From an archaeon (GTDB lineage: Archaea > Nanobdellota > Nanobdellia > Woesearchaeales > GW2011-AR9): DNA of 33,303 nt. The DNA lies in contig JAGVMW010000114.1 of assembly GCA_020053615.1 (NCBI GenBank), forward strand, positions 1 through 33,303, in the 5' to 3' direction. The translations under genes and the position numbers were made by a program. The notes under the pieces were generated by a model. The model worked only from the letters and a program-made list of their open reading frames with translations. It searched no databases and had not been told where the DNA came from. Shown piece by piece: positions 20,951 through 32,672 of the stretch; positions within the stretch are counted from its first letter, which is position 1, and each line of letters opens with the position of its first letter.

Positions 20951-21000
20951 CGTTGCACTAAAATTCAATCCTAACGGAGAGTTTAACAGCGATGTTATAC
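20951..21000 (+). repeat. Junction element J7 (CGTTGCACT ... TTTAACAGCGAT-GTTATAC)
   Basis: CGTTGCACT (20951-20959) matches the S1 block of J3 and J4. AACAGCG plus GTTATAC (20985-21000) match the core. It has the same orientation as the other junctions. Confidence 0.6.
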
Positions 21001-21175
21001 TCAATATTTTAATCACCTTTTCAGGCACGCTGTCGCTTCCGTAAATCTTACGCATTGGCACCTTCGCTAAATCGGCAACGACGACAAAACGAAATTCAAT
21101 TACTTCGTAACTAAACCTAACGATGATTTAGCGGTTCACTCCATTCTCCCAAATTTTCGCTAACATAAACTAATA

Positions 21176-21238
21176 GGGGGAGTTCTAAACTTTCTGACAA
21201 CTAACTTTGACGAGGGGGGAGTTCCGTGACGACGAGAA
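21176..21238 (+). repeat. S2-type block (GGGGGAGTTCTAAAC ... GGGGGGAGTTCCGTGACGACGAGAA) next to the 3' end of the large minus-strand block
   Basis: It resembles 3738-3800 (GGGGGGAATTCCGTAACGA...GCGAGAAAAC). It is also the inverse, with one mismatch, of ACGGAATTCCCCC at 32898-32910. Confidence 0.55.
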
Positions 21239-21257: not shown

Positions 21258-21509
21258 CTAAATGCTTCCTTGATGCACAAGAATTACAGCACCACCAGAT
21301 ACTATAGTTCTAAGATTTCCCACCTGACGCTGGAAGATTTCACTGCCATTAAAAAATGCAGCGTGTCCGTGAGGGCTACCAATATTTGGATAACCATAGA
21401 TTACATCAGTCCTTACACCACTAGCTGAACCACGATCATTCCAATTGAACCAACCGTCGTTTGTGCGAATACTATTATTTTGGTACATATCTGAACTCTT
21501 TATGAGCAT
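21258..21509 (-). CDS. Hypothetical 83-aa Gly/Asn-rich protein
   Basis: Its start overlaps the stop of the Cas4-like gene as TAATG. I recognise no motif. Confidence 0.4.
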   Translation of the reverse strand: MLIKSSDMYQNNSIRTNDGWFNWNDRGSASGVRTDVIYGYPNIGSPHGHAAFFNGSEIFQRQVGNLRTIVSGGAVILVHQGSI

Positions 21510-22183
21510 TACTTTTTAATTATTTCGCAAGAATTCTGAACCCATTCACAAAACCCACATTCTTCAGAGGGAGCGGGAATTTCAGCTTCTAAAACTTGAA
21601 CAACTTTCTTAAAAATATTCTCGGCGTTCTTGATATTAACTTTAATCTTGATTAAATCCTTATGGAAGTCTACATCACCATTCTCATGGACTTTGCTAGG
21701 ATGGTAAAATAATAGATAAGTATAATCCTCTGTCTCATAGCCATTCTTTCGTAAGAGAAAATTGTAGATATCCATCTGGTCTTGATAATGCTCGTGCGTA
21801 TCTTCTTTTAATGGGTAGCCTCTGGTTTTATAATCTAAAACAATCAGTTTCTTTCCCTTTTGGAGCAGATTATCAATAGCTCCATGAAAGAGATTACCTT
21901 TTTTATCAGTCCATGGTATTCCTTTGAAATTGCTTCTCCAAACTTTGAGGAGTTCTTCATTGTCAAAGAGCTTTACTTCACCTTTTAATTGTTGAAGTTC
22001 TGGAGGCAATTCTCCTCTTTTCATAAAGCGGTCAAAATGTTCTTTGAGAATTTTATCCATTCCACTCGGAAGAGATGGGAAAATGGAATCTGGACGTTTA
22101 ATGTTCTTGTTTAAAGCAAGCCAGAAACATCTAGGGCAATCTTTCAGTAAGCTTAGGCTTGATGGGCTGAATTTGTAGGTCAT
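21509..22183 (-). CDS. Cas4/RecB-like PD-(D/E)xK nuclease with a Cys cluster
   Basis: Motifs are GAIDNL, VLDYKT and QDQMDIY (QxxxY). Cysteines occur at CPRC (N-terminal) and CGFCEWVQNSC (C-terminal), as in Fe-S Cas4/AddB-type nucleases. Confidence 0.75.
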   Translation of the reverse strand: MTYKFSPSSLSLLKDCPRCFWLALNKNIKRPDSIFPSLPSGMDKILKEHFDRFMKRGELPPELQQLKGEVKLFDNEELLKVWRSNFKGIPWTDKKGNLFHGAIDNLLQKGKKLIVLDYKTRGYPLKEDTHEHYQDQMDIYNFLLRKNGYETEDYTYLLFYHPSKVHENGDVDFHKDLIKIKVNIKNAENIFKKVVQVLEAEIPAPSEECGFCEWVQNSCEIIKK

Positions 22184-22184
22184 T

Positions 22185-25100
22185 TTACGAAATAAAATCT
22201 AAAGTTATTAATCTTAATTTCTTCTCATCAAACTCGTCTAAGCCTTCTTTTTCATAAACCAGCTTATCCGAAACAAAATTAGTAACATCTACAATTAGTT
22301 TTTTCCAATTTTTATGTCCTTTTCTATAATTATTCCAAACTTTTCTAATAATTTGAATCCTCTTCTTAGTTAAACTAATGTTAACTAATTTCTTTCTAGT
22401 CTCTTCCCATTGTTTTTCTAATGCATTATCTTCCGGAAAATCTAAAATGTAATCCTCTATATCTCTCTCTATTTCGATAATTAATTGGCTCAGAAACTTT
22501 TTACTTCTTTCCTTACTCCAATCCTGTTGTTTTGTATCTGCTTCTTCCTTTACTCGTATTGAATTATATGTTTCTTTAATATCTTTAAGAATATTGGTGT
22601 TAATATCATATACTTCCTCGAAAAATTTAGGAATAACTCTTTTTTCGCTCTCTTTACAAGAAATAAATTGAAGTATTTCGGTTTTGTTCTTAATTGATTT
22701 TCTCGATTCTAAATCATGCAAATACCAGAAATGGAAATCTTCTCCATATTCATAATAAAAGAAAATTCCCCTAATACTTTTTTTAATCAAACCACTATGA
22801 ATCCCATCAGGCAGGTTTTCTAATTCTTTCATTGAACTTTTCTTGAGGTAAGTTTTCAATGGCTGATAAAAAACTTCTCCTCCACCAAATACGTCAGCTT
22901 CCAATTCATCTAAAACTGAAGATTCTTTATCTTTTATCCTCCTGATTACTCCAAAAACTTTAGGATGGATTTTTTCACCCAAAACAGTCTGATCTAATCC
23001 TACTGACTTATCTATATTGATTATTTTGTTTTGAAGAATGTTAACTAATTTTAATAATTCTTCTAATTCATCTTCTGGGAAGAAATTGTAAATATATATT
23101 TTATCATATAATGAGCCAATCCTGTCAATTCTACCTGCCCGCTGAATCATTCTTGTTGGATTCCAATGCAAATCATAATTTATTAAAATTTGTGCGGTCT
23201 GTAAGTTTTGTCCTTCTGATAATACATCAGTGCTTAGAAGAATGTCTATTTCTTTGTTTTTAAATCGTTCTATAATTTTTTGTCTGTCTTTTGGTGTAAA
23301 ACTGCCAGAACCAGAGATTTTTTGAAGCTTGATGTTTTTGAATTCTTTTTGTTTAGAAAGATAATCATAAACATAATCTAAAGTATCTTTGTAATAAGTA
23401 AAAACTACAATTTGGCTTTTTTCGTGTAATTTCAATAATTTATCTTTAAATTCAAGTAATTTTGCATCTTTATCAGGAGTTAAGTTCTTTATTTTTTCTA
23501 ATATACTCCCTAATAGTTGAATATCAATTTTAATGTCTTTAAACATCTCTTCTTTATTGTAATTATTTATGTTGAATTTATCTAATTGTGCTAGTATCTC
23601 CTGTTCAATTTCTTCTGAATCTTCCTCAAAGTCTTCATCTTCGGCAAGTATATATTTTATTAGTTTAGTATAAGCTTGTTTAGATAAGAATTTTCCTTCT
23701 TCTAAACAATTCATCATTGTCTTTAAGAACTTGATATGACGACTAACGCTAATCCTGAATGCCTCAATACTGCTTTCTAGTCTTTTTAGAAGAATTGTTT
23801 TGAAAATACCGCCTATGGCAATCATACGATTTAAAGCCAAGATTTCTTCTTGCGTTTGCAAATTTTCTTTTTTATATCTAAGAATATTATAATAAGCCAT
23901 AGTCAGCTTTTCGGATATTATGTCCGCAATTTCGCGATACATCCCTTGGTAAGTTTGATTCAGTTTGTAATTGATTGTTTCTAGCTTCCTATCTGGAAAT
24001 GTTATTTTCTGCCCATTAACTGTTGCATTAGGATACTCTTTTTTAATATAATCTCTGGTTCTTCTGATAGAAATTTCATTTAGTAAGTCGTTTAATAATG
24101 CAGGATTGCCTCTCTTATCAATTTCTTTAAAATGGACAAATAAATCAGGAATGTTCTCTTTTATGAATGTTGCATTATCATTTCCAACAAGAAGAAGAAT
24201 CTGTGAATACAAATCCCAAATAGAATTATTGATGGGTGTGGCAGTCATAAAGAGAATTTTAGGTTTTTCACCGTTTTCTTTTGTGATAAACTCAATTAAT
24301 GTGTTCATGTTCTCCCACCTGTTAGAGAGTTGATTTCTAAGATTATGGCTTTCATCAACAATTATTAATTCTACTTCTTCTAAATGCCCGCCAGTGGCAG
24401 TTTTTGCTTTATCTAAGAAGTCTTTAGAAGCTAAATTTTCTTGTGAAAGAATATTTTCAGTAAGTTGCTTATCTTTCAATGCGGGAAGCCACATTGTTTC
24501 CTTTAATTGTGCCGGACAGATAACTAAGCATCTCTTTCTTCTAAAAAAACCAAATTCTTCTAATACTTTAAGCGCAATATATGTTTTACCTAAACCAACC
24601 GAATCAGCAACCATGACTGCCCCATATTTTTTTAAACGTGAGAAGACTCTTTGAACAGCATCACTTTGAAATTCGGTTAATTCAACATTTGAAATACCAC
24701 TTTTGTCTTTCTTTTTTTCTTCTTCCTCTGATTCTGCGGCTATTTCATCTTTTTGCAGTTCATAAAGTGATTTTATATAAATTTGAAATGGAGTGTATTC
24801 TGTAGTTCCAAATCTTGAATTTTTGAGTAAAGTGATTAATTGCTCTTTAAATTCTAAAGATTCTTTCCAGAATTTATTGAACCAGTTTTCTCTACTATAT
24901 TCAACAAACATTTTACCCTGCTGAACAGTGTTATATTCTCCTTCTCTTGTAAGCCCAGCATAAGTAAAATTGGAAGAGCCACTAACCACTAATTTATCAA
25001 AAATATAAGTTTTTCCATGCAATAGGTTTTTGTCATAAATTCTGATTTCCACATTATGTTTTTCTAAAAAAGTAATTAAATCAGTAACATGGTCTTTCTT

Positions 25101-25391
25101 TTCTTTTGTAAGACCTAACTCTGCAATTTCTGTTTCTACTACTTTCAGCAGGGCTTTTCCTAAAGTCTGATTGTTATCCGTAAGTTCGGGGGATTTTCCA
25201 AGAAGCAAGCGAAATTTAGTAACTCCTTCTAATTTTTCTTTAACCAAAGCATACCCCTCCACGTTAAAGAATGCGGTAGCAATATCTAAATTAGTATTGG
25301 GATCTAAATGGAGAACTTTGTTTAGGAAAACAGACAGTTTTATGTTGTTGTTATCAACAATGTTTTCGTCAATCATCATTTGAATACCCAT
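22185..25391 (-). CDS. PLD-nuclease domain fused to an SNF2-family helicase
   Basis: The N-terminal LLHGKTYIFDKLVVSGSSN is an HxK..D..GSxN PLD motif. SNF2 motifs are GLGKT, IVDESHNLRN, TATPINN, LSEGQNLQ and QRAGRIDRIG. The likely start is the ATG at 25379, in an ATGA overlap with the upstream stop. Confidence 0.9.
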   Translation of the reverse strand: MGIQMMIDENIVDNNNIKLSVFLNKVLHLDPNTNLDIATAFFNVEGYALVKEKLEGVTKFRLLLGKSPELTDNNQTLGKALLKVVETEIAELGLTKEKKDHVTDLITFLEKHNVEIRIYDKNLLHGKTYIFDKLVVSGSSNFTYAGLTREGEYNTVQQGKMFVEYSRENWFNKFWKESLEFKEQLITLLKNSRFGTTEYTPFQIYIKSLYELQKDEIAAESEEEEKKKDKSGISNVELTEFQSDAVQRVFSRLKKYGAVMVADSVGLGKTYIALKVLEEFGFFRRKRCLVICPAQLKETMWLPALKDKQLTENILSQENLASKDFLDKAKTATGGHLEEVELIIVDESHNLRNQLSNRWENMNTLIEFITKENGEKPKILFMTATPINNSIWDLYSQILLLVGNDNATFIKENIPDLFVHFKEIDKRGNPALLNDLLNEISIRRTRDYIKKEYPNATVNGQKITFPDRKLETINYKLNQTYQGMYREIADIISEKLTMAYYNILRYKKENLQTQEEILALNRMIAIGGIFKTILLKRLESSIEAFRISVSRHIKFLKTMMNCLEEGKFLSKQAYTKLIKYILAEDEDFEEDSEEIEQEILAQLDKFNINNYNKEEMFKDIKIDIQLLGSILEKIKNLTPDKDAKLLEFKDKLLKLHEKSQIVVFTYYKDTLDYVYDYLSKQKEFKNIKLQKISGSGSFTPKDRQKIIERFKNKEIDILLSTDVLSEGQNLQTAQILINYDLHWNPTRMIQRAGRIDRIGSLYDKIYIYNFFPEDELEELLKLVNILQNKIINIDKSVGLDQTVLGEKIHPKVFGVIRRIKDKESSVLDELEADVFGGGEVFYQPLKTYLKKSSMKELENLPDGIHSGLIKKSIRGIFFYYEYGEDFHFWYLHDLESRKSIKNKTEILQFISCKESEKRVIPKFFEEVYDINTNILKDIKETYNSIRVKEEADTKQQDWSKERSKKFLSQLIIEIERDIEDYILDFPEDNALEKQWEETRKKLVNISLTKKRIQIIRKVWNNYRKGHKNWKKLIVDVTNFVSDKLVYEKEGLDEFDEKKLRLITLDFIS

Positions 25392-25882
25392 CCCTCTTTT
25401 CTAAACATTTCAATCAAGAATATGCATTCAATACCATATTCTTGGCATACATAAGGAACTTTAGTTTTTTTACCACTTATTCTTTCTTCTGAAACAACTA
25501 TTCTTTTTTTTATTGTTTCAATTAATGTTTTTTGAGCGTCTGCCTCCATCTCAATAGCAAGCGCAATAACAAAAGGATCTGCAATAGGAACCATACTATC
25601 TTCATTTAACCATTTAGGATATTTGGCTAATAATTCTTGAACAATTTGGATCTGTCTAGGTGTTAAATCTTTAAACAGCTTTGTCTGTTTTTTAGACCAT
25701 TCTTTCAGGTGGTCGTCTCCCCTTTCAATTTCTTTTAAAACTTCTTTTGGTGAAACTAAAAATCCACTTTCAATTAACGATTCTATTTTTTGCCAAACAG
25801 GAGGAAAAATATCTATGGGATACTTTCTATTTAACTCTATCAGTGAACATGAATCTATCACATAGTAATTTATGGATGTCAT
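25376..25882 (-). CDS. DUF4411 (PIN-like) protein
   Basis: YVIDSCSLIELNRKYPIDIFPPVWQKIESLIESGFLVSPKEVLKEIERGDDHLKEW matches the DUF4411 pattern. It has a 4-nt overlap with the upstream ImmA gene. Confidence 0.75.
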   Translation of the reverse strand: MTSINYYVIDSCSLIELNRKYPIDIFPPVWQKIESLIESGFLVSPKEVLKEIERGDDHLKEWSKKQTKLFKDLTPRQIQIVQELLAKYPKWLNEDSMVPIADPFVIALAIEMEADAQKTLIETIKKRIVVSEERISGKKTKVPYVCQEYGIECIFLIEMFRKEGWVFK

Positions 25883-27018
25883 TTGGAAGTCCTTTTTATT
25901 ACTTTTTCAAAATATTTGGTTTTTATTGATAGATAACTCAATGCATCGCTGTATGTGATAAATCCTTTATCCATGTTATCAGCAACCAAAGAAGGTAGTT
26001 TATGCCCTAATTCTGCAATGCATTTCTGGTCTTGAGTTCGCGGATCAACGATTTTGTGTTTTCCTTCAGCTTTAACGGGTATAGGTCTCTCCAGAATTGA
26101 TTTGTAGATTGATTGAGTAATAAAATTAAGATTAAACATATTATAAACAAGCATCGCTTTACTGACTTTGTATTTTCTTTTTAGTGTATTTAACGTATTT
26201 GTTTCTGTTAATGATTCTTTTTTCTGTGAAAATACTGAATTTGCCAATTCTGCTGGAAGTAAGAAATTTGACGCAAACAGGTTACACCATTTCTCAATCT
26301 TATCCTGTGTTTGAAATTCCGTTAAAGAGATTGCAGTCTCTCCAAGTAAAACATGCCCAAACTCGTGCATCAATGTAAATATTCTAGCTTCAATCTCATC
26401 CTGAGAGTTGGTCACTACAATTTTAGGATCTTTATCTGATAACGCAAAACCTCTTGCATCTTCTATGGGCATCGATATTTGAAATGAATAAATGTTTTTC
26501 TCTTCAAGCATTTCTCTTAAATAAGAATATACTTTGTAGGCATCTTTTAATTCAGTGGTTTGCTTTTCTACTGAAAAAAATAATAGTTCCCTATACTTAG
26601 TTGCTATCTGCTGCGGGTTATCCGTAATTTTATGTAATGTGATTTTAGGTTTCAAATCATTTTCAATATTTATGGCAAGCTCTTGGATGATTCCCTGTAA
26701 ATATCTTGCTTTTCTAATTGCCAAAATTGTCTTTTTGTTAAATTTTCCTTCTTTTCCTGGAAGCATACGGTAATCTTTTGGTTTTGGCTTCTCTTCAGGC
26801 GCTTTGGGCAGGAAGAATACAGCTAAAGGTCTTTTTAATTTATCTGCAAGAGCTTCTAATTGTTTTATGGTAATATTTCCTTTTAACCAATCTTTATATA
26901 TTGCTTCAGAAATATTTAGTTTTGAAATTAGTTCAGACTCATCCCAACCGGAAGTACTGATTGCCCATTTGATGACTTCAGGCTTTATTTGTATTTTTAC
27001 GGGTTTAGTTTTTGGCAT
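25879..27018 (-). CDS. XRE-type HTH fused to an ImmA/IrrE (M78, COG2856) metallopeptidase
   Basis: The zinc site HEFGH occurs in LMHEFGHVLL. The N-terminal HTH region reads ELISKLNISEAIYKDWLKG. Confidence 0.8.
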   Translation of the reverse strand: MPKTKPVKIQIKPEVIKWAISTSGWDESELISKLNISEAIYKDWLKGNITIKQLEALADKLKRPLAVFFLPKAPEEKPKPKDYRMLPGKEGKFNKKTILAIRKARYLQGIIQELAINIENDLKPKITLHKITDNPQQIATKYRELLFFSVEKQTTELKDAYKVYSYLREMLEEKNIYSFQISMPIEDARGFALSDKDPKIVVTNSQDEIEARIFTLMHEFGHVLLGETAISLTEFQTQDKIEKWCNLFASNFLLPAELANSVFSQKKESLTETNTLNTLKRKYKVSKAMLVYNMFNLNFITQSIYKSILERPIPVKAEGKHKIVDPRTQDQKCIAELGHKLPSLVADNMDKGFITYSDALSYLSIKTKYFEKVIKRTSK

Positions 27019-27075: not shown

Positions 27076-27570
27076 TTATATTGTTTTTCTTATCAAAGCG
27101 ATTAAGTAAGTATAAACCATATGTCCTGACTCAGCCACTTTTATCTTTAGTTCTTGTAACTTAGTTCTATCTGCAATTAAATCAATTTTAAATCTATTAT
27201 CTGACTTATTATTTATTCTTCTTAATTTTATTTCGATAATAACATAGGGATTATTAAAGCCATATCCTTTTGAGGGTAGAGGAAAATGCCCGCCCTTCTT
27301 TGTTATGAGTTGGGAGACATCAAAAATAACAATATCTGATCTGCACTTTAACTTTTTAGAGCGACCATACCACCTAACTTCACAATGCACCGGAATTGAT
27401 TGCTGATTATCTTCTGTTTGTTCCAAACCGTTAAAATCAGCAAGAAGTAAATGATAAAGATAGGCTCTAACATCTTCTTCAGTTAAGAATTTATCAGGAG
27501 TAGCTTTAAATTCATCTATTAAAGTATTAATCTTTTGTTCTACTTTTACTTTGATTTGTTGATTTTCCAT
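27076..27570 (-). CDS. Hypothetical protein with a PD-(D/E)xK nuclease-like motif
   Basis: HCEVR...RSDIVIFD...PYVIIEIKLRR fits E...D...ExK spacing. The call rests on the motif alone. Confidence 0.4.
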   Translation of the reverse strand: MENQQIKVKVEQKINTLIDEFKATPDKFLTEEDVRAYLYHLLLADFNGLEQTEDNQQSIPVHCEVRWYGRSKKLKCRSDIVIFDVSQLITKKGGHFPLPSKGYGFNNPYVIIEIKLRRINNKSDNRFKIDLIADRTKLQELKIKVAESGHMVYTYLIALIRKTI

Positions 27571-27572
27571 CT

Positions 27573-28112
27573 TTAACTCAATAGCCCAAAAAACAATGGT
27601 ACGTATTTTAGGGATATACCTGCCACTATTTTCAGTAGTTCAAGAGCATTTTCTCCGCTTTCTTTTAGGGTATTAAATTTTTCTAGTATATTAAATAAGC
27701 CCTTTTTCTTTTCTGAGTCTAATTCAGAGTCTTGCTCTATCATCTGTTTTAAAATGTAATGTTTTGAGTTGTTAATTACAATGGTATTACCGTCTCCTGC
27801 GGATTGAACTACATTCCCAATTGAAGAGTTTATTATCTGTTGAGATATGTTCTGGTCAATATCAACTAACGGTCTTTTGCCACAGGCGATTTCTAAACCT
27901 TTGGCAGTAACTTTATTCCAAATCATGCCTACAAGACCTCTTGCCAGAGTTTCTGTGTATTGAACCGCTCCAATTTCTTTAAGATATTCAAGAACATCAC
28001 ACACTTCTTCTTCATTAATCTTTAATTTTTCAGGAAGTTCTTCTACTTTGATTCTATCATCAGCTAATAATTTCAATACCGGTTCAGCTAAATGTATGGT
28101 TTTGGCATTCAT
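27573..28112 (-). CDS. Hypothetical protein with a possible N-terminal wHTH and a hydrophobic C-terminus
   Basis: EEVCDVLEYLKEIGAVQY is wHTH-like. The C-terminal IVAGISLKYVPLFFGLLS is hydrophobic. The gene is tightly packed in the operon, with 1-2 nt gaps. Confidence 0.45.
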   Translation of the reverse strand: MNAKTIHLAEPVLKLLADDRIKVEELPEKLKINEEEVCDVLEYLKEIGAVQYTETLARGLVGMIWNKVTAKGLEIACGKRPLVDIDQNISQQIINSSIGNVVQSAGDGNTIVINNSKHYILKQMIEQDSELDSEKKKGLFNILEKFNTLKESGENALELLKIVAGISLKYVPLFFGLLS

Positions 28113-28113
28113 T

Positions 28114-28938
28114 TTATTTTTTAAACAGTTCTCTTATATCTTTACTTCCAACTAGCTTTACGTTGTTAAAATGTTGGGGGTATTCTTCTCTAGTTAAAGT
28201 TATTAAATAATTAACCATGTACCATTTCAATCCATTATTCTCACTTTTCGCATTTGCTAAATGAATATAAGCATTTCTTGATTCCCTAATAATGTCTAAA
28301 CAATTATGTTTGTTAATATAACTATACTTTTTTAAGTATCTTTTGCCTTTTGTACCAACTAAAGCCGGAGTTTTATCGATTTTATATTTTTGAATAAAAG
28401 AAAGATAACCTTCCTTAAGAGATTTATTAGACGCATGGAATAGTTTAATACATTCATGAAATTTGAATGTTTCTGAGGAGAAATTTGAACTAATATCTTT
28501 CTTTGCATCATAATAAATCTTATTTAATTTGGATTGGGTTAATTGTGAGATTTTATTTAATTTATCCAATTTCATGGTGTATTTCTGAGAAAATTTGTTT
28601 GACAACATTTTGTTCAAACCAGTAAAAACACCATTTTTTCTGTCAAGCCCAACACACCTATCGGTTTTGTTTATAATGAAATTTCTTTTAAGTAAGATGA
28701 GTTTGACTAAGTGTTCTGCAGTTGAACCAATTAAATTCATTTTCTGAAGATGATAAGCTCTTGATTGGTAAAATTTCTGTTTTTGTCCTTGATTATAGGA
28801 AACAACTTTTTTATTTAACAAAATTTTGACTAATTTAAGATTTTCTTTGATTAAAGCTATATAAGTATCTACTACTATTGGTTGATATAAAAGTATATCA
28901 AATTTATCTTTCGAAATTTCCCATTGTTTTAGTTTCAT
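28114..28938 (-). CDS. Hypothetical helical protein with an RNxxxH motif, possibly HEPN (Abi_2/AbiD-F-like)
   Basis: IIRESRNAYIHLANA contains Rx4H in the RNxxxH form seen in several HEPN RNases. An upstream helix reads GSTAEHLVKLILLK. The call rests on the motif alone. Confidence 0.4.
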   Translation of the reverse strand: MKLKQWEISKDKFDILLYQPIVVDTYIALIKENLKLVKILLNKKVVSYNQGQKQKFYQSRAYHLQKMNLIGSTAEHLVKLILLKRNFIINKTDRCVGLDRKNGVFTGLNKMLSNKFSQKYTMKLDKLNKISQLTQSKLNKIYYDAKKDISSNFSSETFKFHECIKLFHASNKSLKEGYLSFIQKYKIDKTPALVGTKGKRYLKKYSYINKHNCLDIIRESRNAYIHLANAKSENNGLKWYMVNYLITLTREEYPQHFNNVKLVGSKDIRELFKK

Positions 28939-31900
28939 TTTTTCAAACTCGTCGCTTTGTTTAATCTTTGCTGTACTAACTCACAGACAGCCCAATATAC
29001 TTCTTTTCTTTCTTCTTTGGTTAATCCCAATTCATCAAAGATGATATTGTCAAGTTCTGCTCGGTCTGGAAGAGGCTTTGGCTCTTGTTCACGGATGGGT
29101 TTGGTGGGGTCGATGCCGAGTTCTTCAAATATTGATTTTACTTCTCTTGTAAAAAATTTATTAATATTATATTTTGAAAAATTCAATTTTTGGAGCGATA
29201 CCATTGGGATTTTATTAGCATCCATTGTAGCTAAATCCAGAGCACCCTGACCTAAATTTGAACGTCCATAAATTTCAATAAATAAAGCAGTAAATGTAGA
29301 GTTAAGAAGTAATGAAAAGTACTTTGGATTTACTTCTTTTTTTAGTTTTATCATGTGAAAGCGACGGTCACTTAATGCTTTCTTTTCCGAATATGGATGA
29401 ATAAACCGGTCATTATACCCATATAACATAAAGCAATTTGTGAACTCAACATTAGAAATAGACCACCAGCCCGGTTTTCTATTTACTACGGTTGGAACTT
29501 CTGGCCATGGGATTCCTGCTTTGACTTTACCTTTCTCTTTTGTCTCTTGTCTCTCTCCCCATTCTATATACTTTAAAGCATTGTTATGGTCCTTTGATTT
29601 CAGCGAGTTCTTAGATTCATTACAAATAAAAACAAATTTTTTGTTGATATATTTATTTAAACTAATGCACTTAACATCCTGAGGAGATTTAATCAATGGG
29701 ATAAGATAATCAGTCTCAATTTTCCATTTTTTTACTTGTTCTTCGTTCAAATAAAAGAAATCATTTATCCCGCTGTAAAGTCCCGTATCCACTTTACCGT
29801 ATAATTCTTTTAATACTCCAACATCCTTCTTACTGAGTATACTAAAAACTATGTCTGGAGAACGCAAGAACTTACTCCCCCACTTATTTCCTTCATAACT
29901 CCCTTTGCCAAACCTTCCATTTTCATACCCTTCTGGATATTCCCAACCATCTTCCAGCAAATCTTCCTGATTAATGGGATAAACCCTAAACTCATTTGTT
30001 TTCAGTATCTTCTCTGCTTTCTCAATCTTAACCAGATTAGCCGCATTAACCACTTCCTCAAATGGCTTCTTGAACATCACAAAGCGAGCAGTTTGACTAA
30101 ATCCAGAATATGTCGCTTTTCCATTGCCATTATACTCAGCGCCATACTCAAATAATGATTTTTGCTTGCCAATTACCGGCGCACCCAAAAGTGCAATAAT
30201 TGTATTTACATCAGCATGCTCAAAGCTTCGTTTGGCTTGATTGTCATAAATTCCAATAACGTGCGAATATCTTAACAAAAACTCCTGCAACCCCTTCCCA
30301 TAACCCACATCCAGCCAAGAATTAGAGGTAATAAAACAAAACACTCCACCAGAATTAAGCAAACTCAATCCGTGAAAGTAAAAATAGACATACAAATCGC
30401 TTTTCTTATCCCAATCAATAACGACAGGAAACCTATTTTGAACGGATTTAATCAATTTCTCTTTATATCCTCGTCTATCTTCAAGTGTAACCTCTTCTTT
30501 AAGCTTATTTGGCGGAGCAATCTTCTCCTGCCGCACATACGGCGGATTGCCAATCACAATATCAAACCCGCCTTCATCTGCAAATACTTCCGCAAAATCA
30601 ATATCCCAAACAAATGGTTTCTTGGCAGGATCTTTCAATAACTCTTTTACTTTCTTTAATTTCTCAATTTCATCAGCACATTCTTTTATCCGGTTTTCAA
30701 GCTCAATTAAATTCTTCTTCTCTTTTTTGATATTCTCCGCATCAATATTAACTGAAGCGCCAAATAAGCCCGTTTGCTTCTCTTTCTTACTTGAAGAATG
30801 GGTTAAGACTTGAATATCAGTCTCTAATGATTCTATCCGTTCATTCAAAATCTCTTCAAATAATCTAACCTCTTGCACTTTAAACTCTTCTGGAGTCTTA
30901 TATTTTGCTGAGGGAGAATTTTCAAAATATCTTCTTTTCTCATTTTTCAACTCTTCCAGTTTTTTCTTTAAATGCGGCTTCAGATTATTGCTTCGCACAT
31001 TAAAGCTGATTCCACCAATTTCCTGCACTAATGAATCACCAACACGCAGATTCATGTTTAAATTTGGTAATAACGGATGTTTCCTTAATTCTTCATCTTT
31101 AAATTGTGTTTCCACAATCAACTGAAGCCATAATCTTAATTCTGAGGCATGAATTGCCCAGGGCATGACATCTACCCCATATAGAGAACGTTGGATTATC
31201 CTATACTTTAATTGGAAGTCGCTTAAGCTAGAACCAATATGCTTAAACACAATTTTATACAATTCTACCAAGACATTAAGCATCCCTACTAAAAATGCCC
31301 CCGAACCACAGGCAGGATCAACAATAGAAAGATTATCCAACGCTTCCTCTATTTTACCCCAGCATTTACGCTGATTGAACTTCTTCTCAATTTTCTCTTT
31401 ATCTTCATCAAATACAAACTCGTATAATTCCTCTTTAGGTATCTCTAAATTCTTTCCTAGATACTCTACTAAAGACCTTCGACACATAAAATCTACTTCT
31501 ACTTTAGCAGTATAGAATATACCCCAATCCCCACGCAAATCTTCTTCATTTTCATAAACATCCTCTGTAATATTAGCCAGAGACTCATAAACATAACCAA
31601 TCATTTGAGGATCAACGGAGACTTCTACATCTAATACAGAATCTTCTTTGATGGTAAAATTGTAGCTTTCGAAGAAGTCAAATATCTCTTTAAAGAGATT
31701 ATCAGATATGTTTATCTTTAAGTCGTCTAACCCTATTTTTTTAGTAAATAAGCCGCCATTAAGATAGGGACTATTTGACAATATTTTATTTACTTCCTCG
31801 GGAAGTTCAGGATGATAACTGGATTTATTATTAAAAGCCTCAAAGAACAGAGGTTTTAACCATTTATCATAAAATTCATTATTTCCATATTTACTAATTC

Positions 31901-32672
31901 GTTTATATAAATCCCAATATGCCTGCATAAATTTTCTATCTTTATTCAGCCATTCTTTCTTAGCTATAAAATAAATGAACATAATTCTATTCATAAATTG
32001 TAATGTAAATTCATGGGCTATTTTCGGGTCTACCTTCTGTTTTTTGAGTTCTTTTCTCACCACTAAAAATAGTCTTTGATAATCCTCAAAAAATTTCTTA
32101 GTAACTTTCTGAACATCAAACGCCTCTTTCCATAACCGCCAGAGTTCTCGCCATGTTTTCTTTTGGTCTTCCAGAAATATATTGCAAATTATCTCAATAT
32201 CTGTATAATAAAGCTCATCTTTTTTCAATATTAATGTGGTTGTTTTAAGTTTATGTTTTCCTACCTCCTGCTTTTCGTAATCTGGAAACACAATATGTAT
32301 CTCTTTATAATCGATTGTAATAATTAAGAGACATCGCGTGTACATTTCAGCGAATTTGTTTGCGATATATCGCATAAGAGGCTTACTAAGAGAGTTAGTT
32401 TCAATTAAGAAGACATTGAGTTTATCATAACTCATAACTGTGTAAATTGTTTTAATTTTGTCTCGTTCTTCACTGGCAAAAGAAAATTCTTTTATCTTTT
32501 TAACATAAGATGAATCAAAAATTGCTTCTTTTGGATAATTTAGACTCTTAAACAAACCATATATATCCTCTGAATTCTTTATGAAAGAGATATAATCTTT
32601 AACTTTCTTTCGGAGATCTGAATTATTATTCACTTTTCCCGCCCCCTCTTCTCTAACTCTGCTTCCATGCAT
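28935..32672 (-). CDS. Large N6-adenine DNA methyltransferase, Eco57I/type IIG- or PglX-like
   Basis: Motif I is IVDPACGSGAFLVGML and motif IV is VIGNPPYV, with a coiled-coil insert between them and a long C-terminal region. I could not identify a clear N-terminal nuclease motif. The more likely start is the GTG at 32633, in a GTGA overlap with the RHH-2 stop, rather than the ATG at 32672. Confidence 0.8.
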   Translation of the reverse strand: MHGSRVREEGAGKVNNNSDLRKKVKDYISFIKNSEDIYGLFKSLNYPKEAIFDSSYVKKIKEFSFASEERDKIKTIYTVMSYDKLNVFLIETNSLSKPLMRYIANKFAEMYTRCLLIITIDYKEIHIVFPDYEKQEVGKHKLKTTTLILKKDELYYTDIEIICNIFLEDQKKTWRELWRLWKEAFDVQKVTKKFFEDYQRLFLVVRKELKKQKVDPKIAHEFTLQFMNRIMFIYFIAKKEWLNKDRKFMQAYWDLYKRISKYGNNEFYDKWLKPLFFEAFNNKSSYHPELPEEVNKILSNSPYLNGGLFTKKIGLDDLKINISDNLFKEIFDFFESYNFTIKEDSVLDVEVSVDPQMIGYVYESLANITEDVYENEEDLRGDWGIFYTAKVEVDFMCRRSLVEYLGKNLEIPKEELYEFVFDEDKEKIEKKFNQRKCWGKIEEALDNLSIVDPACGSGAFLVGMLNVLVELYKIVFKHIGSSLSDFQLKYRIIQRSLYGVDVMPWAIHASELRLWLQLIVETQFKDEELRKHPLLPNLNMNLRVGDSLVQEIGGISFNVRSNNLKPHLKKKLEELKNEKRRYFENSPSAKYKTPEEFKVQEVRLFEEILNERIESLETDIQVLTHSSSKKEKQTGLFGASVNIDAENIKKEKKNLIELENRIKECADEIEKLKKVKELLKDPAKKPFVWDIDFAEVFADEGGFDIVIGNPPYVRQEKIAPPNKLKEEVTLEDRRGYKEKLIKSVQNRFPVVIDWDKKSDLYVYFYFHGLSLLNSGGVFCFITSNSWLDVGYGKGLQEFLLRYSHVIGIYDNQAKRSFEHADVNTIIALLGAPVIGKQKSLFEYGAEYNGNGKATYSGFSQTARFVMFKKPFEEVVNAANLVKIEKAEKILKTNEFRVYPINQEDLLEDGWEYPEGYENGRFGKGSYEGNKWGSKFLRSPDIVFSILSKKDVGVLKELYGKVDTGLYSGINDFFYLNEEQVKKWKIETDYLIPLIKSPQDVKCISLNKYINKKFVFICNESKNSLKSKDHNNALKYIEWGERQETKEKGKVKAGIPWPEVPTVVNRKPGWWSISNVEFTNCFMLYGYNDRFIHPYSEKKALSDRRFHMIKLKKEVNPKYFSLLLNSTFTALFIEIYGRSNLGQGALDLATMDANKIPMVSLQKLNFSKYNINKFFTREVKSIFEELGIDPTKPIREQEPKPLPDRAELDNIIFDELGLTKEERKEVYWAVCELVQQRLNKATSLKK

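Follow-up and report, generated by a model that had tools for sequence, protein, structure and literature searches.

Does a helicase-nuclease that is followed only one nucleotide further on by a second nuclease gene of another fold form a single DNA-targeting effector together with it? This question is raised by a stretch of 33,303 nucleotides (nt) from an archaeon of the order Woesearchaeales (contig JAGVMW010000114.1 of GenBank assembly GCA_020053615.1), which as a whole is called the window in the following. On its minus strand, an open reading frame (ORF) joining a phospholipase D (PLD) nuclease domain to an SNF2 ATPase, here termed PLD-SNF2, is succeeded by a gene for a Cas4-like nuclease and, as annotated, by a third ORF of 83 amino acids (aa) joined to it by a TAATG overlap. 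A sequence-only reading of this region had described the three genes as coupled and had suggested a DNA-targeting effector in which two different nuclease folds are attached to one translocase. The observation itself is confirmed, since all three ORFs, the 1-nt gap, the TAATG overlap and the quoted motifs are present, whereas the interpretation as a coupled effector is not supported. The unit of function has to be corrected: the helicase-nuclease belongs with a methyltransferase encoded upstream of it and not with the Cas4-like gene.

The helicase-nuclease and its partner methyltransferase

The proposed fusion of a PLD nuclease with a complete SNF2 ATPase in one chain is borne out by Pfam domains as well as by invariant motifs. 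PLDc_2 is found at residues 34-175 of PLD-SNF2 (5.6e-10), along with helicase matches to ResIII/DEAD/SNF2-rel_dom and Helicase_C (2.5e-26). In an alignment of 17 family members with 55-83% identity, the HKD motif (H125-G-K127 and G138-S-S-N141), the Walker A motif (A262-DSVGLGKT270) as well as D346-ESH349, T383-ATP386 and Q750-RAGRIDR757 are invariant, helicase motifs I, II, III and VI thus all being included. This conservation across the family argues that the enzyme is almost certainly active, and PLD-SNF2 can very probably be regarded as an ATP-driven nuclease that targets DNA. The family is large, with more than 6,000 proteins at E<=0.001 among 8,000 candidates scored, and full-length identity still amounts to about 55% between archaeal (DPANN, Asgard, Altiarchaeota) and bacterial (Nitrospirota, Deltaproteobacteria) members. 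A sequence search against solved structures returned generic SNF2/DEAD helicases only, as judged from the best 60 of 128 matches.

The gene neighbourhood was surveyed in 88 related PLD-SNF2 loci, adjacency being counted where at least 6 kb of upstream and at least 4 kb of downstream flank were available. A homologue of the window methyltransferase adjoins PLD-SNF2 in all 15 loci with enough flank. Within the subfamily of at least 50% identity it is located 845-5247 nt upstream in 10 of 10 such loci, and in distant subfamilies it is found directly downstream instead. In the well-covered loci examined, the upstream partners are proteins of approximately 1,210-1,245 aa encoded on the same strand and displaying MmeI_Mtase, Eco57I and M_Eco57I_C domains. 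The window methyltransferase itself matches the Pfam families Eco57I (3.6e-32) and MmeI_Mtase (1.8e-9) as well as the PADLOC model REase_MTase_IIG (2.1e-58). No MmeI-type nuclease domain was detected in its 430-aa N-terminal region (E<=0.01), the other matches being generic methyltransferase ones. Judged by its domains, the protein hence does not appear to be a one-chain type IIG enzyme of the MmeI kind, in which nuclease and methyltransferase are fused, and the HKD domain of the helicase is therefore the sole nuclease detected in the core.

What lies between the two partners varies by locus, and the upstream methyltransferase stays constant in loci of Nitrospirota, Nanoarchaeota and others. 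In a Nitrospirota metagenome-assembled genome, this slot is occupied by a HigB-like protein, a helix-turn-helix (HTH)-ImmA protein and an unknown protein, in the 83% identical relative by a 194-aa protein together with M78 and DUF4411 proteins, in the 94% and 84% relatives by KilA-N, HTH, DUF488 and other proteins, and in the 65% relative by a single 389-aa protein. This adjacency across loci with varying genes in between points to methyltransferase and PLD-SNF2 as the conserved unit, separated by a variable cargo slot. In a 37% identical relative (L067:262-7518), the slot holds an ATPase and a small partner which, by eye, resemble OLD/PARIS systems. As this pair occurs in so distant a subfamily, the cargo slot is regarded as old and widespread.

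The closest relative of the window block, the 94% identical locus L006, was compared at the nucleotide level. Identity reaches 93-97% in the helicase body, compared with 82% in the Cas4-like gene and 86% in the methyltransferase gene, suggesting that the block has been reshuffled or unevenly selected. In addition, the PLD domain (window 24850-25391 vs L006:10001-10550) is just 70-84% identical, as opposed to 93-97% in the gene outside this domain. Recombination of single domains or diversifying selection acting on the nuclease head might explain the difference.

The Cas4-like nuclease and its small companion gene

The protein encoded behind PLD-SNF2 matches PDDEXK_1 (PF12705) with 7e-13 and 49.5 bits versus a cut-off of 22, whereas the Cas4 models TIGR00372 (34.6 vs 65) and PF01930 (17.4 vs 22.7) remain below their cut-offs. 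Among 34-35 homologues, D104, D117-Y-K119, Q136 and Y140 are invariant, as are the cysteines C16, C19, C209 and C212. The DYK, QxxxY and CxxC elements read from the sequence alone thus hold throughout the family, but the additional 'x6C' cysteine, C219, is variable. CRISPR-associated Cas4 shares the RecB nuclease motifs (D, DxK, QxxxY) with this protein but carries a 1+3 cysteine pattern (C...CX2CX5C) for its Fe-S cluster, a pattern not shared by the family of the window protein. Four invariant cysteines and a non-conserved fifth one point to a predicted 2+2 metal site stapling the N- and C-termini. An AlphaFold2 model (predicted local distance difference test, pLDDT, 86; predicted template modelling score, pTM, 0.82) gave the AdnAB Fe-S nuclease domain, Cas4 in the Cas4-Cas1-Cas2 complex, RecE, MGME1 and lambda exonuclease as best fold matches. 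Within the PD-(D/E)XK fold, the protein thus belongs to the branch of RecB/Cas4 exonucleases. A sequence search against solved structures gave nothing significant. The family comprises 3,689 matches, the best 120 clusters being 72-92% identical, and the best clusters are labelled Woesearchaeota, Nanoarchaeota, Methanocellales, Halobacteriota and Patescibacteria.

A mapping of co-occurrence speaks against a fixed pair of PLD-SNF2 and this nuclease. With a hidden Markov model (HMM) of the family run over all 2,097 ORFs, the Cas4-like gene was found in just one of the 88 other PLD-SNF2 loci, namely L006; the 83%, 84%, 72% and 65% identical PLD-SNF2 relatives do not carry it. In a sample of 201 genomes of the window's order, 152 of them of high quality, the Cas4-like gene is present in 41 (30 of the high-quality ones), mostly as a single copy, and a PLD-SNF2 relative in three. 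The source genome is the only one among the 201 with both. PLD-SNF2 is retained as a very probable DNA-targeting effector from the sequence-only reading, whereas its coupling to the two following genes is not. Furthermore, the best Cas4-like match in the order sample (91%) stems from a different family, compared with 78-82% for genomes of the same family, which points to horizontal movement of the gene.

The contexts of the Cas4-like gene are equally diverse, and its closest relatives (92% and 86%) reside in unrelated ones. It is found behind RhuM in some loci and behind Bro-N in another, and other upstream genes encode HsdR (C-terminus), HsdM, Fic (twice), a DUF4011/DUF3320 protein or a DDE transposase. 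In one context it lies beside a DpnI/methyltransferase pair, in some it follows housekeeping genes, and in one lineage it is located between gcpE and dxr of the isoprenoid methylerythritol phosphate (MEP) operon. Overall, restriction-modification (R-M), defence or mobile-element contexts account for about two thirds of roughly 18 annotated lineages. In at least eight contexts, only 0-4 nt separate the stop codon of the upstream gene from the Cas4-like ATG, the sequence being TAAAATG in three of them; in other contexts, the gene has its own TATA-like box approximately 27 nt upstream. Additionally, tandem copies (two to three) of GTTGACGCAA occur directly upstream of the ATG in four unrelated contexts (L012:1915-1960, L015, L025:5960-6000 and L031) and are absent from the window. 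They may constitute an operator or a recombination site.

The gcpE-dxr junction was compared further among Woesearchaeales MEP operons (L017:4897-7826, L179:1501-4100 and L181:359-2514). Besides the lineage with the Cas4-like gene, it is uninterrupted in several genomes, and in another genome it carries, as judged by eye, a nucleotidyltransferase and HEPN-like pair. In each case, start and stop codons of the inserts overlap those of the neighbours. Since different inserts are found at one and the same junction, insertion there appears to be a general cargo habit, and operon junctions seem to serve as insertion slots for small accessory genes in Woesearchaeales that are not specific to the Cas4-like nuclease. 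Archaea normally use the mevalonate route; the presence of gcpE (IspG) of the bacterial-type MEP pathway in 35 of the 201 genomes of this archaeal order is thus unexpected. Viral origin of the Cas4-like gene was considered as well, but is not shown: the relatives in IMG/VR (16 loci) are mostly only 27-42% identical, and the single 61% match is surrounded by IS200/605 and methyltransferase genes and resembles an island more than a virus.

The 83-aa ORF is a genuine gene, but not in the form in which it had been described. Start (MYQ...) and stop are common to its homologues when the gene begins at M8 (ATG at 21488), giving 76 aa instead of 83, so that the TAATG overlap is not a conserved start. 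Two other protein clusters of 76 aa are 78-80% identical to the window protein, i.e. three lineages in total. Pairwise ratios of nonsynonymous to synonymous substitution (dN/dS) of 0.15-0.18 and the concentration of differences at third codon positions (e.g. 8/9/34) indicate a protein-coding gene under purifying selection. A Cas4-like gene precedes it by 10-20 nt in every occurrence. Outside the window's own lineage, this Cas4-like gene follows RhuM and PLD-SNF2 is absent, and those loci share 82% nucleotide homology with window positions 22186-21260, starting 3 nt before the Cas4-like ATG and ending within the stop codon of the small gene. Cas4-like copies accompanied by the 76-aa gene also display a distinct C-terminal tail, NS[CS]E[IM]IKK. 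In L006, in which the small gene is missing, the Cas4-like stop runs directly into the conserved non-coding flank. As the small ORF is absent from this nearest locus yet conserved elsewhere behind Cas4-like genes downstream of RhuM, the objection that a non-conserved small ORF would raise against a coupled effector applies by half. From its distribution, the 76-aa gene is best regarded as the companion of one Cas4-like sub-lineage without link to PLD-SNF2, and a role of its product as regulator or partner of the nuclease is a guess.

When 1.8 billion representative proteins were searched with a profile, a thin family of 23 emerged, the small members of which measure about 50-130 aa (mostly about 70-85 aa), with W, G-x-P-H-x-H and R as invariants around the core GIGSPHGH. 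The protein matches no Pfam family, 400 further genomes of the phylum yielded no member, and a degenerate GIGSPHGH DNA pattern hit 12 loci in viral contigs, none of them a true homologue. An AlphaFold2 model from three sequences (pLDDT 39.7) was unusable for a fold search. With respect to the Cas4-like gene itself, a nonsense codon at position 127 was observed (L139:245-916 and L141) in contigs that match an intact copy (L140) at 99.8% identity, so natural populations contain segregating null alleles.

Operon layout and proposed function

In the window, nine ORFs follow one another head to tail on the minus strand from 32672 down to 21258; at eight of the nine junctions, neighbours overlap or are spaced by 0-4 nt (Table 1). 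For PLD-SNF2, M5 is probably the true start, since its ATG then overlaps the DUF4411 stop (ATGA) and the length agrees with that of a 1064-aa relative. None of the three small cargo ORFs gave a Pfam, PADLOC or NCBIfam match; among PLD-SNF2 loci, a homologue of the 164-aa protein occurs only in L004/L005, i.e. the 83% relative. The M78 protein additionally matches PADLOC RmrA (7.7e-18), and its gene is found in some PLD-SNF2 loci only. Likewise, the DUF4411 gene is present in L004/L005 and absent from L001, L006, L009 and L011. The block is closed by a non-coding flank with 86% identity to L006 over 241 nt, in which GAACTCCCCC occurs twice.

Table 1 Features of the minus-strand operon in the window
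Feature	Coordinates	Strand	Remarks
1245-aa N6-adenine methyltransferase	28935-32672	-	Eco57I and MmeI_Mtase domains; conserved PLD-SNF2 partner
Three small cargo ORFs (274, 179 and 164 aa)	27076-28938	-	No family match
379-aa HTH/ImmA-IrrE (Peptidase_M78) protein	25879-27018	-	Pfam Peptidase_M78 6.2e-17; variable cargo
168-aa DUF4411 (PIN-like) protein	25376-25882	-	Pfam DUF4411 3.1e-31; variable cargo, paired with M78 gene
1068-aa HKD(PLD)-SNF2 helicase-nuclease	22185-25391	-	Likely restriction effector; probable start 25379 (M5)
224-aa solo Cas4-like RecB-family PD-(D/E)XK nuclease	21509-22183	-	Independently distributed add-on
76-aa gene, motif GIGSPHGH	21258-21488 (83-aa ORF: 21258-21509)	-	Seen only downstream of Cas4-like genes
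Conserved non-coding 3' flank	20994-21233	-	Common to window and 94% relative L006; closes block

Building on what was observed (domain content, catalytic conservation, pairing, a Cas4-like gene that is distributed independently and a small ORF that codes for protein), the locus is best explained, with a probability of roughly 70%, as a minus-strand defence operon consisting of a core of R-M-like methyltransferase and HKD-SNF2 enzyme, exchangeable cargo and a Cas4-like add-on acting as auxiliary exonuclease. In such an operon, the methyltransferase would place N6-methyladenine on host DNA at an asymmetric site, allowing methylation-dependent discrimination between self and non-self. As each PLD-SNF2 chain carries a single HKD motif, the enzyme would presumably dimerise to form one HKD active site for cleavage, as in BfiI, SauUSI and MtsD, and ATP-driven translocation or communication between unmodified sites would then lead to cutting of foreign DNA. 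The ImmA/DUF4411 pair and the three unknown genes would represent exchangeable cargo, maybe toxin-antitoxin-like or back-up modules. Finally, the Cas4-like nuclease, whose placement just after the upstream stop codon would allow co-expression, would be produced from the 3' end of the operon and most likely cooperate with PLD-SNF2 by trimming or degrading the DNA ends made by the core. In bacteria, RecBCD or AddAB are thought to process DNA ends after restriction.

Several points weigh against this explanation. The marking of host DNA and its counterpart, restriction by the core, are deduced from the genes, and the role suggested for the Cas4-like protein is drawn from its fold and context. Furthermore, the survey loci originate from pattern-based scans and are possibly biased, and many contigs are too short to show neighbours. 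A real functional contribution of the Cas4-like gene in this lineage would also be compatible with its start 1 nt behind PLD-SNF2 and with its persistence in two relatives that have diverged (82% nucleotide identity). In the explanation from which the analysis started, PLD-SNF2, the Cas4-like protein and the small ORF would make up a single dedicated effector of three genes, one translocase being equipped with two nucleases. Tight spacing (the 1-nt gap followed by a 20-nt gap or overlap) and the PLD-SNF2/Cas4-like order kept in L006 speak for such an effector, but with adjacency in one of 88 other loci, co-existence of both genes in a single genome among 201, and a small ORF that is absent from L006 and elsewhere occurs without PLD-SNF2, it is very unlikely. 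Another explanation is that the Cas4-like gene, with or without its companion, would be a selfish, self-mobilising nuclease gene with homing-like insertion after stop codons of expressed genes. Homology boundaries that closely match the gene module, the 0-4 nt stop-to-start spacing in at least eight contexts, the position between gcpE and dxr at a junction uninterrupted in other genomes, the 91% match in another family compared with 78-82% within the same family, and a nonsense allele in a population are all in line with it. However, repeats, a target duplication or a recognisable target site were not seen, the gcpE-dxr junction elsewhere holds another insert, the gene is usually single-copy, and solo-cas4 genes have been found to be mostly vertically inherited (Hudaiberdiev et al. 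2017, PMC5704561), so that this explanation is unlikely. A related idea, in which the Cas4-like and 'GIGSPHGH' genes constitute a self-propagating hitch-hiker of DPANN operons and the small protein controls or guides the nuclease, is slightly less likely still; if true, insertion behind the stop codons of expressed genes, including those of housekeeping operons, would couple translation to that of the upstream gene.

Alternatively, the Cas4-like protein might be a general nuclease for DNA repair or end resection which is positioned behind PLD-SNF2 by accident. This would agree with strong full-length conservation, many residues being invariant down to about 57% identity, and with those contexts that consist of housekeeping genes, but a general repair function is difficult to reconcile with a gene present in no more than 41 of the 201 order genomes (30 of the 152 with high quality) and with R-M, defence or mobile-element genes in about two thirds of annotated contexts; it is accordingly considered rather improbable. 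An involvement in CRISPR spacer acquisition in trans is the least probable of all and can practically be dismissed, in spite of the Cas4-like fold, weak Cas4 HMM matches and a cas1 gene in the genome. Neither cas genes nor a CRISPR array were found in the window, as the sequence-only reading had stated. The genome does possess a canonical cas4-cas1-cas2 locus with CRISPR repeats on another contig of 2.7 kb (C177; L162:1-2140), where cas4 is a C-terminal fragment with the CX2CX5C tail, i.e. the locus has a cas4 of its own. The Cas4-like gene occurs in three of 15 cas1 genomes of the order, which equals the 20% background. A role in CRISPR adaptation was rejected for these two reasons, and the earlier statement that the protein is not part of an adaptation module holds also at the genome level. 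The defence operon with a methyltransferase/HKD-SNF2 core and an independently distributed Cas4-like gene thus remains the preferred explanation.

Relation to known systems

Among catalogued families, the Cas4-like gene is readily placed. Stand-alone Cas4-like nucleases of pfam12705 have been reported to be over-represented in DPANN archaea and the Candidate Phyla Radiation (CPR) outside CRISPR loci; in several DPANN genomes they lie next to R-M genes, transfer between DPANN and CPR is likely, and their function is not known (Hudaiberdiev et al. 2017, PMC5704561). Being a stand-alone RecB-family nuclease in non-CRISPR loci of small-genome archaea, with a PF12705 match and R-M neighbours, the window gene belongs to this solo Cas4-like class of DPANN. 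It differs from the published description (PMC5704561) by the invariant 2+2 cysteines of its family and by the 76-aa companion in three lineages, which is absent from that description. The counts and the companion gene reported here hence feed into the long-open question of solo Cas4 in CRISPR-poor, small-genome archaea.

For PLD-SNF2, the best-scoring catalogued model is PADLOC PDLC01075, 'C3a139 HKD+Snf2' (1.3e-56, residues 10-808), followed by DrmD, HmaA and BrxH. C3a139 denotes a candidate accessory of four members near type III CRISPR-Cas cassettes with no assigned function (Shah et al. 2018, PMC6546367). In the 65% relative (L011:13767-21784), a complete type I CRISPR-Cas locus immediately adjoins the methyltransferase/PLD-SNF2 pair. 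Most likely this is just a defence-island neighbourhood, and it fits the 'CRISPR accessory' origin of C3a139. All NCBIfam matches of PLD-SNF2 are below cut-off, among them NF042964 ('phospholipase D-like anti-phage protein'; 152 bits vs 1100) and the DrmD equivalog NF038317 (185 bits vs 610). The pair of PLD-SNF2 and Cas4-like nuclease is assigned to a named system by none of the HMM libraries.

The closest functional parallel is provided by the Type-2 BREX-related (BR) systems, which correspond to MANTIS or Gao_RL. Here, HKD-SNF2 effectors act with methyltransferases: the HKD-Swi2/Snf2 effector MtsD restricts unmethylated DNA, and the methyltransferase requires the DUF499 AAA+ ATPase MtsA and the DUF3780 protein MtsB (PMC12839542; bioRxiv 10.64898/2026.09.23.753747). 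The window shares with these systems the N-terminal HKD nuclease fused to a Swi2/Snf2 helicase and the N6-adenine methyltransferase partner, and auxiliary nucleases are often embedded in their loci as well. In contrast, the window methyltransferase is of the MmeI/Eco57I type. DUF499 was found neither among the operon proteins nor, as PF04465, in the 83%-complete genome, control genomes being positive; DUF3780 had no Pfam match in the operon proteins, and a genome search for it was negative, but so was the control set. Given also the NF042964 score far below cut-off, membership in MANTIS/Type-2 BR was rejected. With class 1 DISARM (DrmD SNF2, DrmC PLD, DrmMI, DrmA, DrmB), the locus has in common SNF2, PLD and a large adenine methyltransferase, and the DrmD and DrmMI models match window proteins partially, but PLD and SNF2 are fused in the window. 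DrmA or DrmB were not found among the window proteins, and the DrmB hallmark DUF1998/MZB (PF09369) is absent from the genome, the control being positive in eight genomes. Together with the DrmD score, this led to rejection of DISARM membership. As DUF499, DUF3780 and DUF1998 were not found, the operon is considered neither a MANTIS/Type-2 BR nor a DISARM system.

Two further parallels concern single aspects of the core. A type IIG-like methyltransferase beside a coding sequence for PLD and SNF helicase was reported in bacterial programmed-inversion loci (Milman et al. 2023, PMC9881135). It is the same two-gene pairing, mentioned there in passing and not named or analysed as a system, and the window differs in that no inversion module was seen. 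SauUSI (a Type IV PLD-helicase restriction enzyme; PDB 7CLG, as cited in the MANTIS preprint) combines PLD and SF2 ATPase in one chain, acts as a dimer that has one PLD active site, and targets modified DNA via its own recognition domain without a partner methyltransferase. Its likeness to PLD-SNF2 lies in the joining of PLD nuclease and helicase ATPase in a single chain; no sequence-level match to it was obtained among the best 60 of 128 PDB matches. By gene content and model scores, the methyltransferase/HKD-SNF2 operon thus appears to be an unnamed but widespread variant matching no named defence system. With an MmeI-type methyltransferase and an HKD-SNF2 enzyme in place, and without the AAA+ ATPase on which methylation in MANTIS depends, the pair represents a useful minimal comparison for self/non-self recognition in BREX-related systems.

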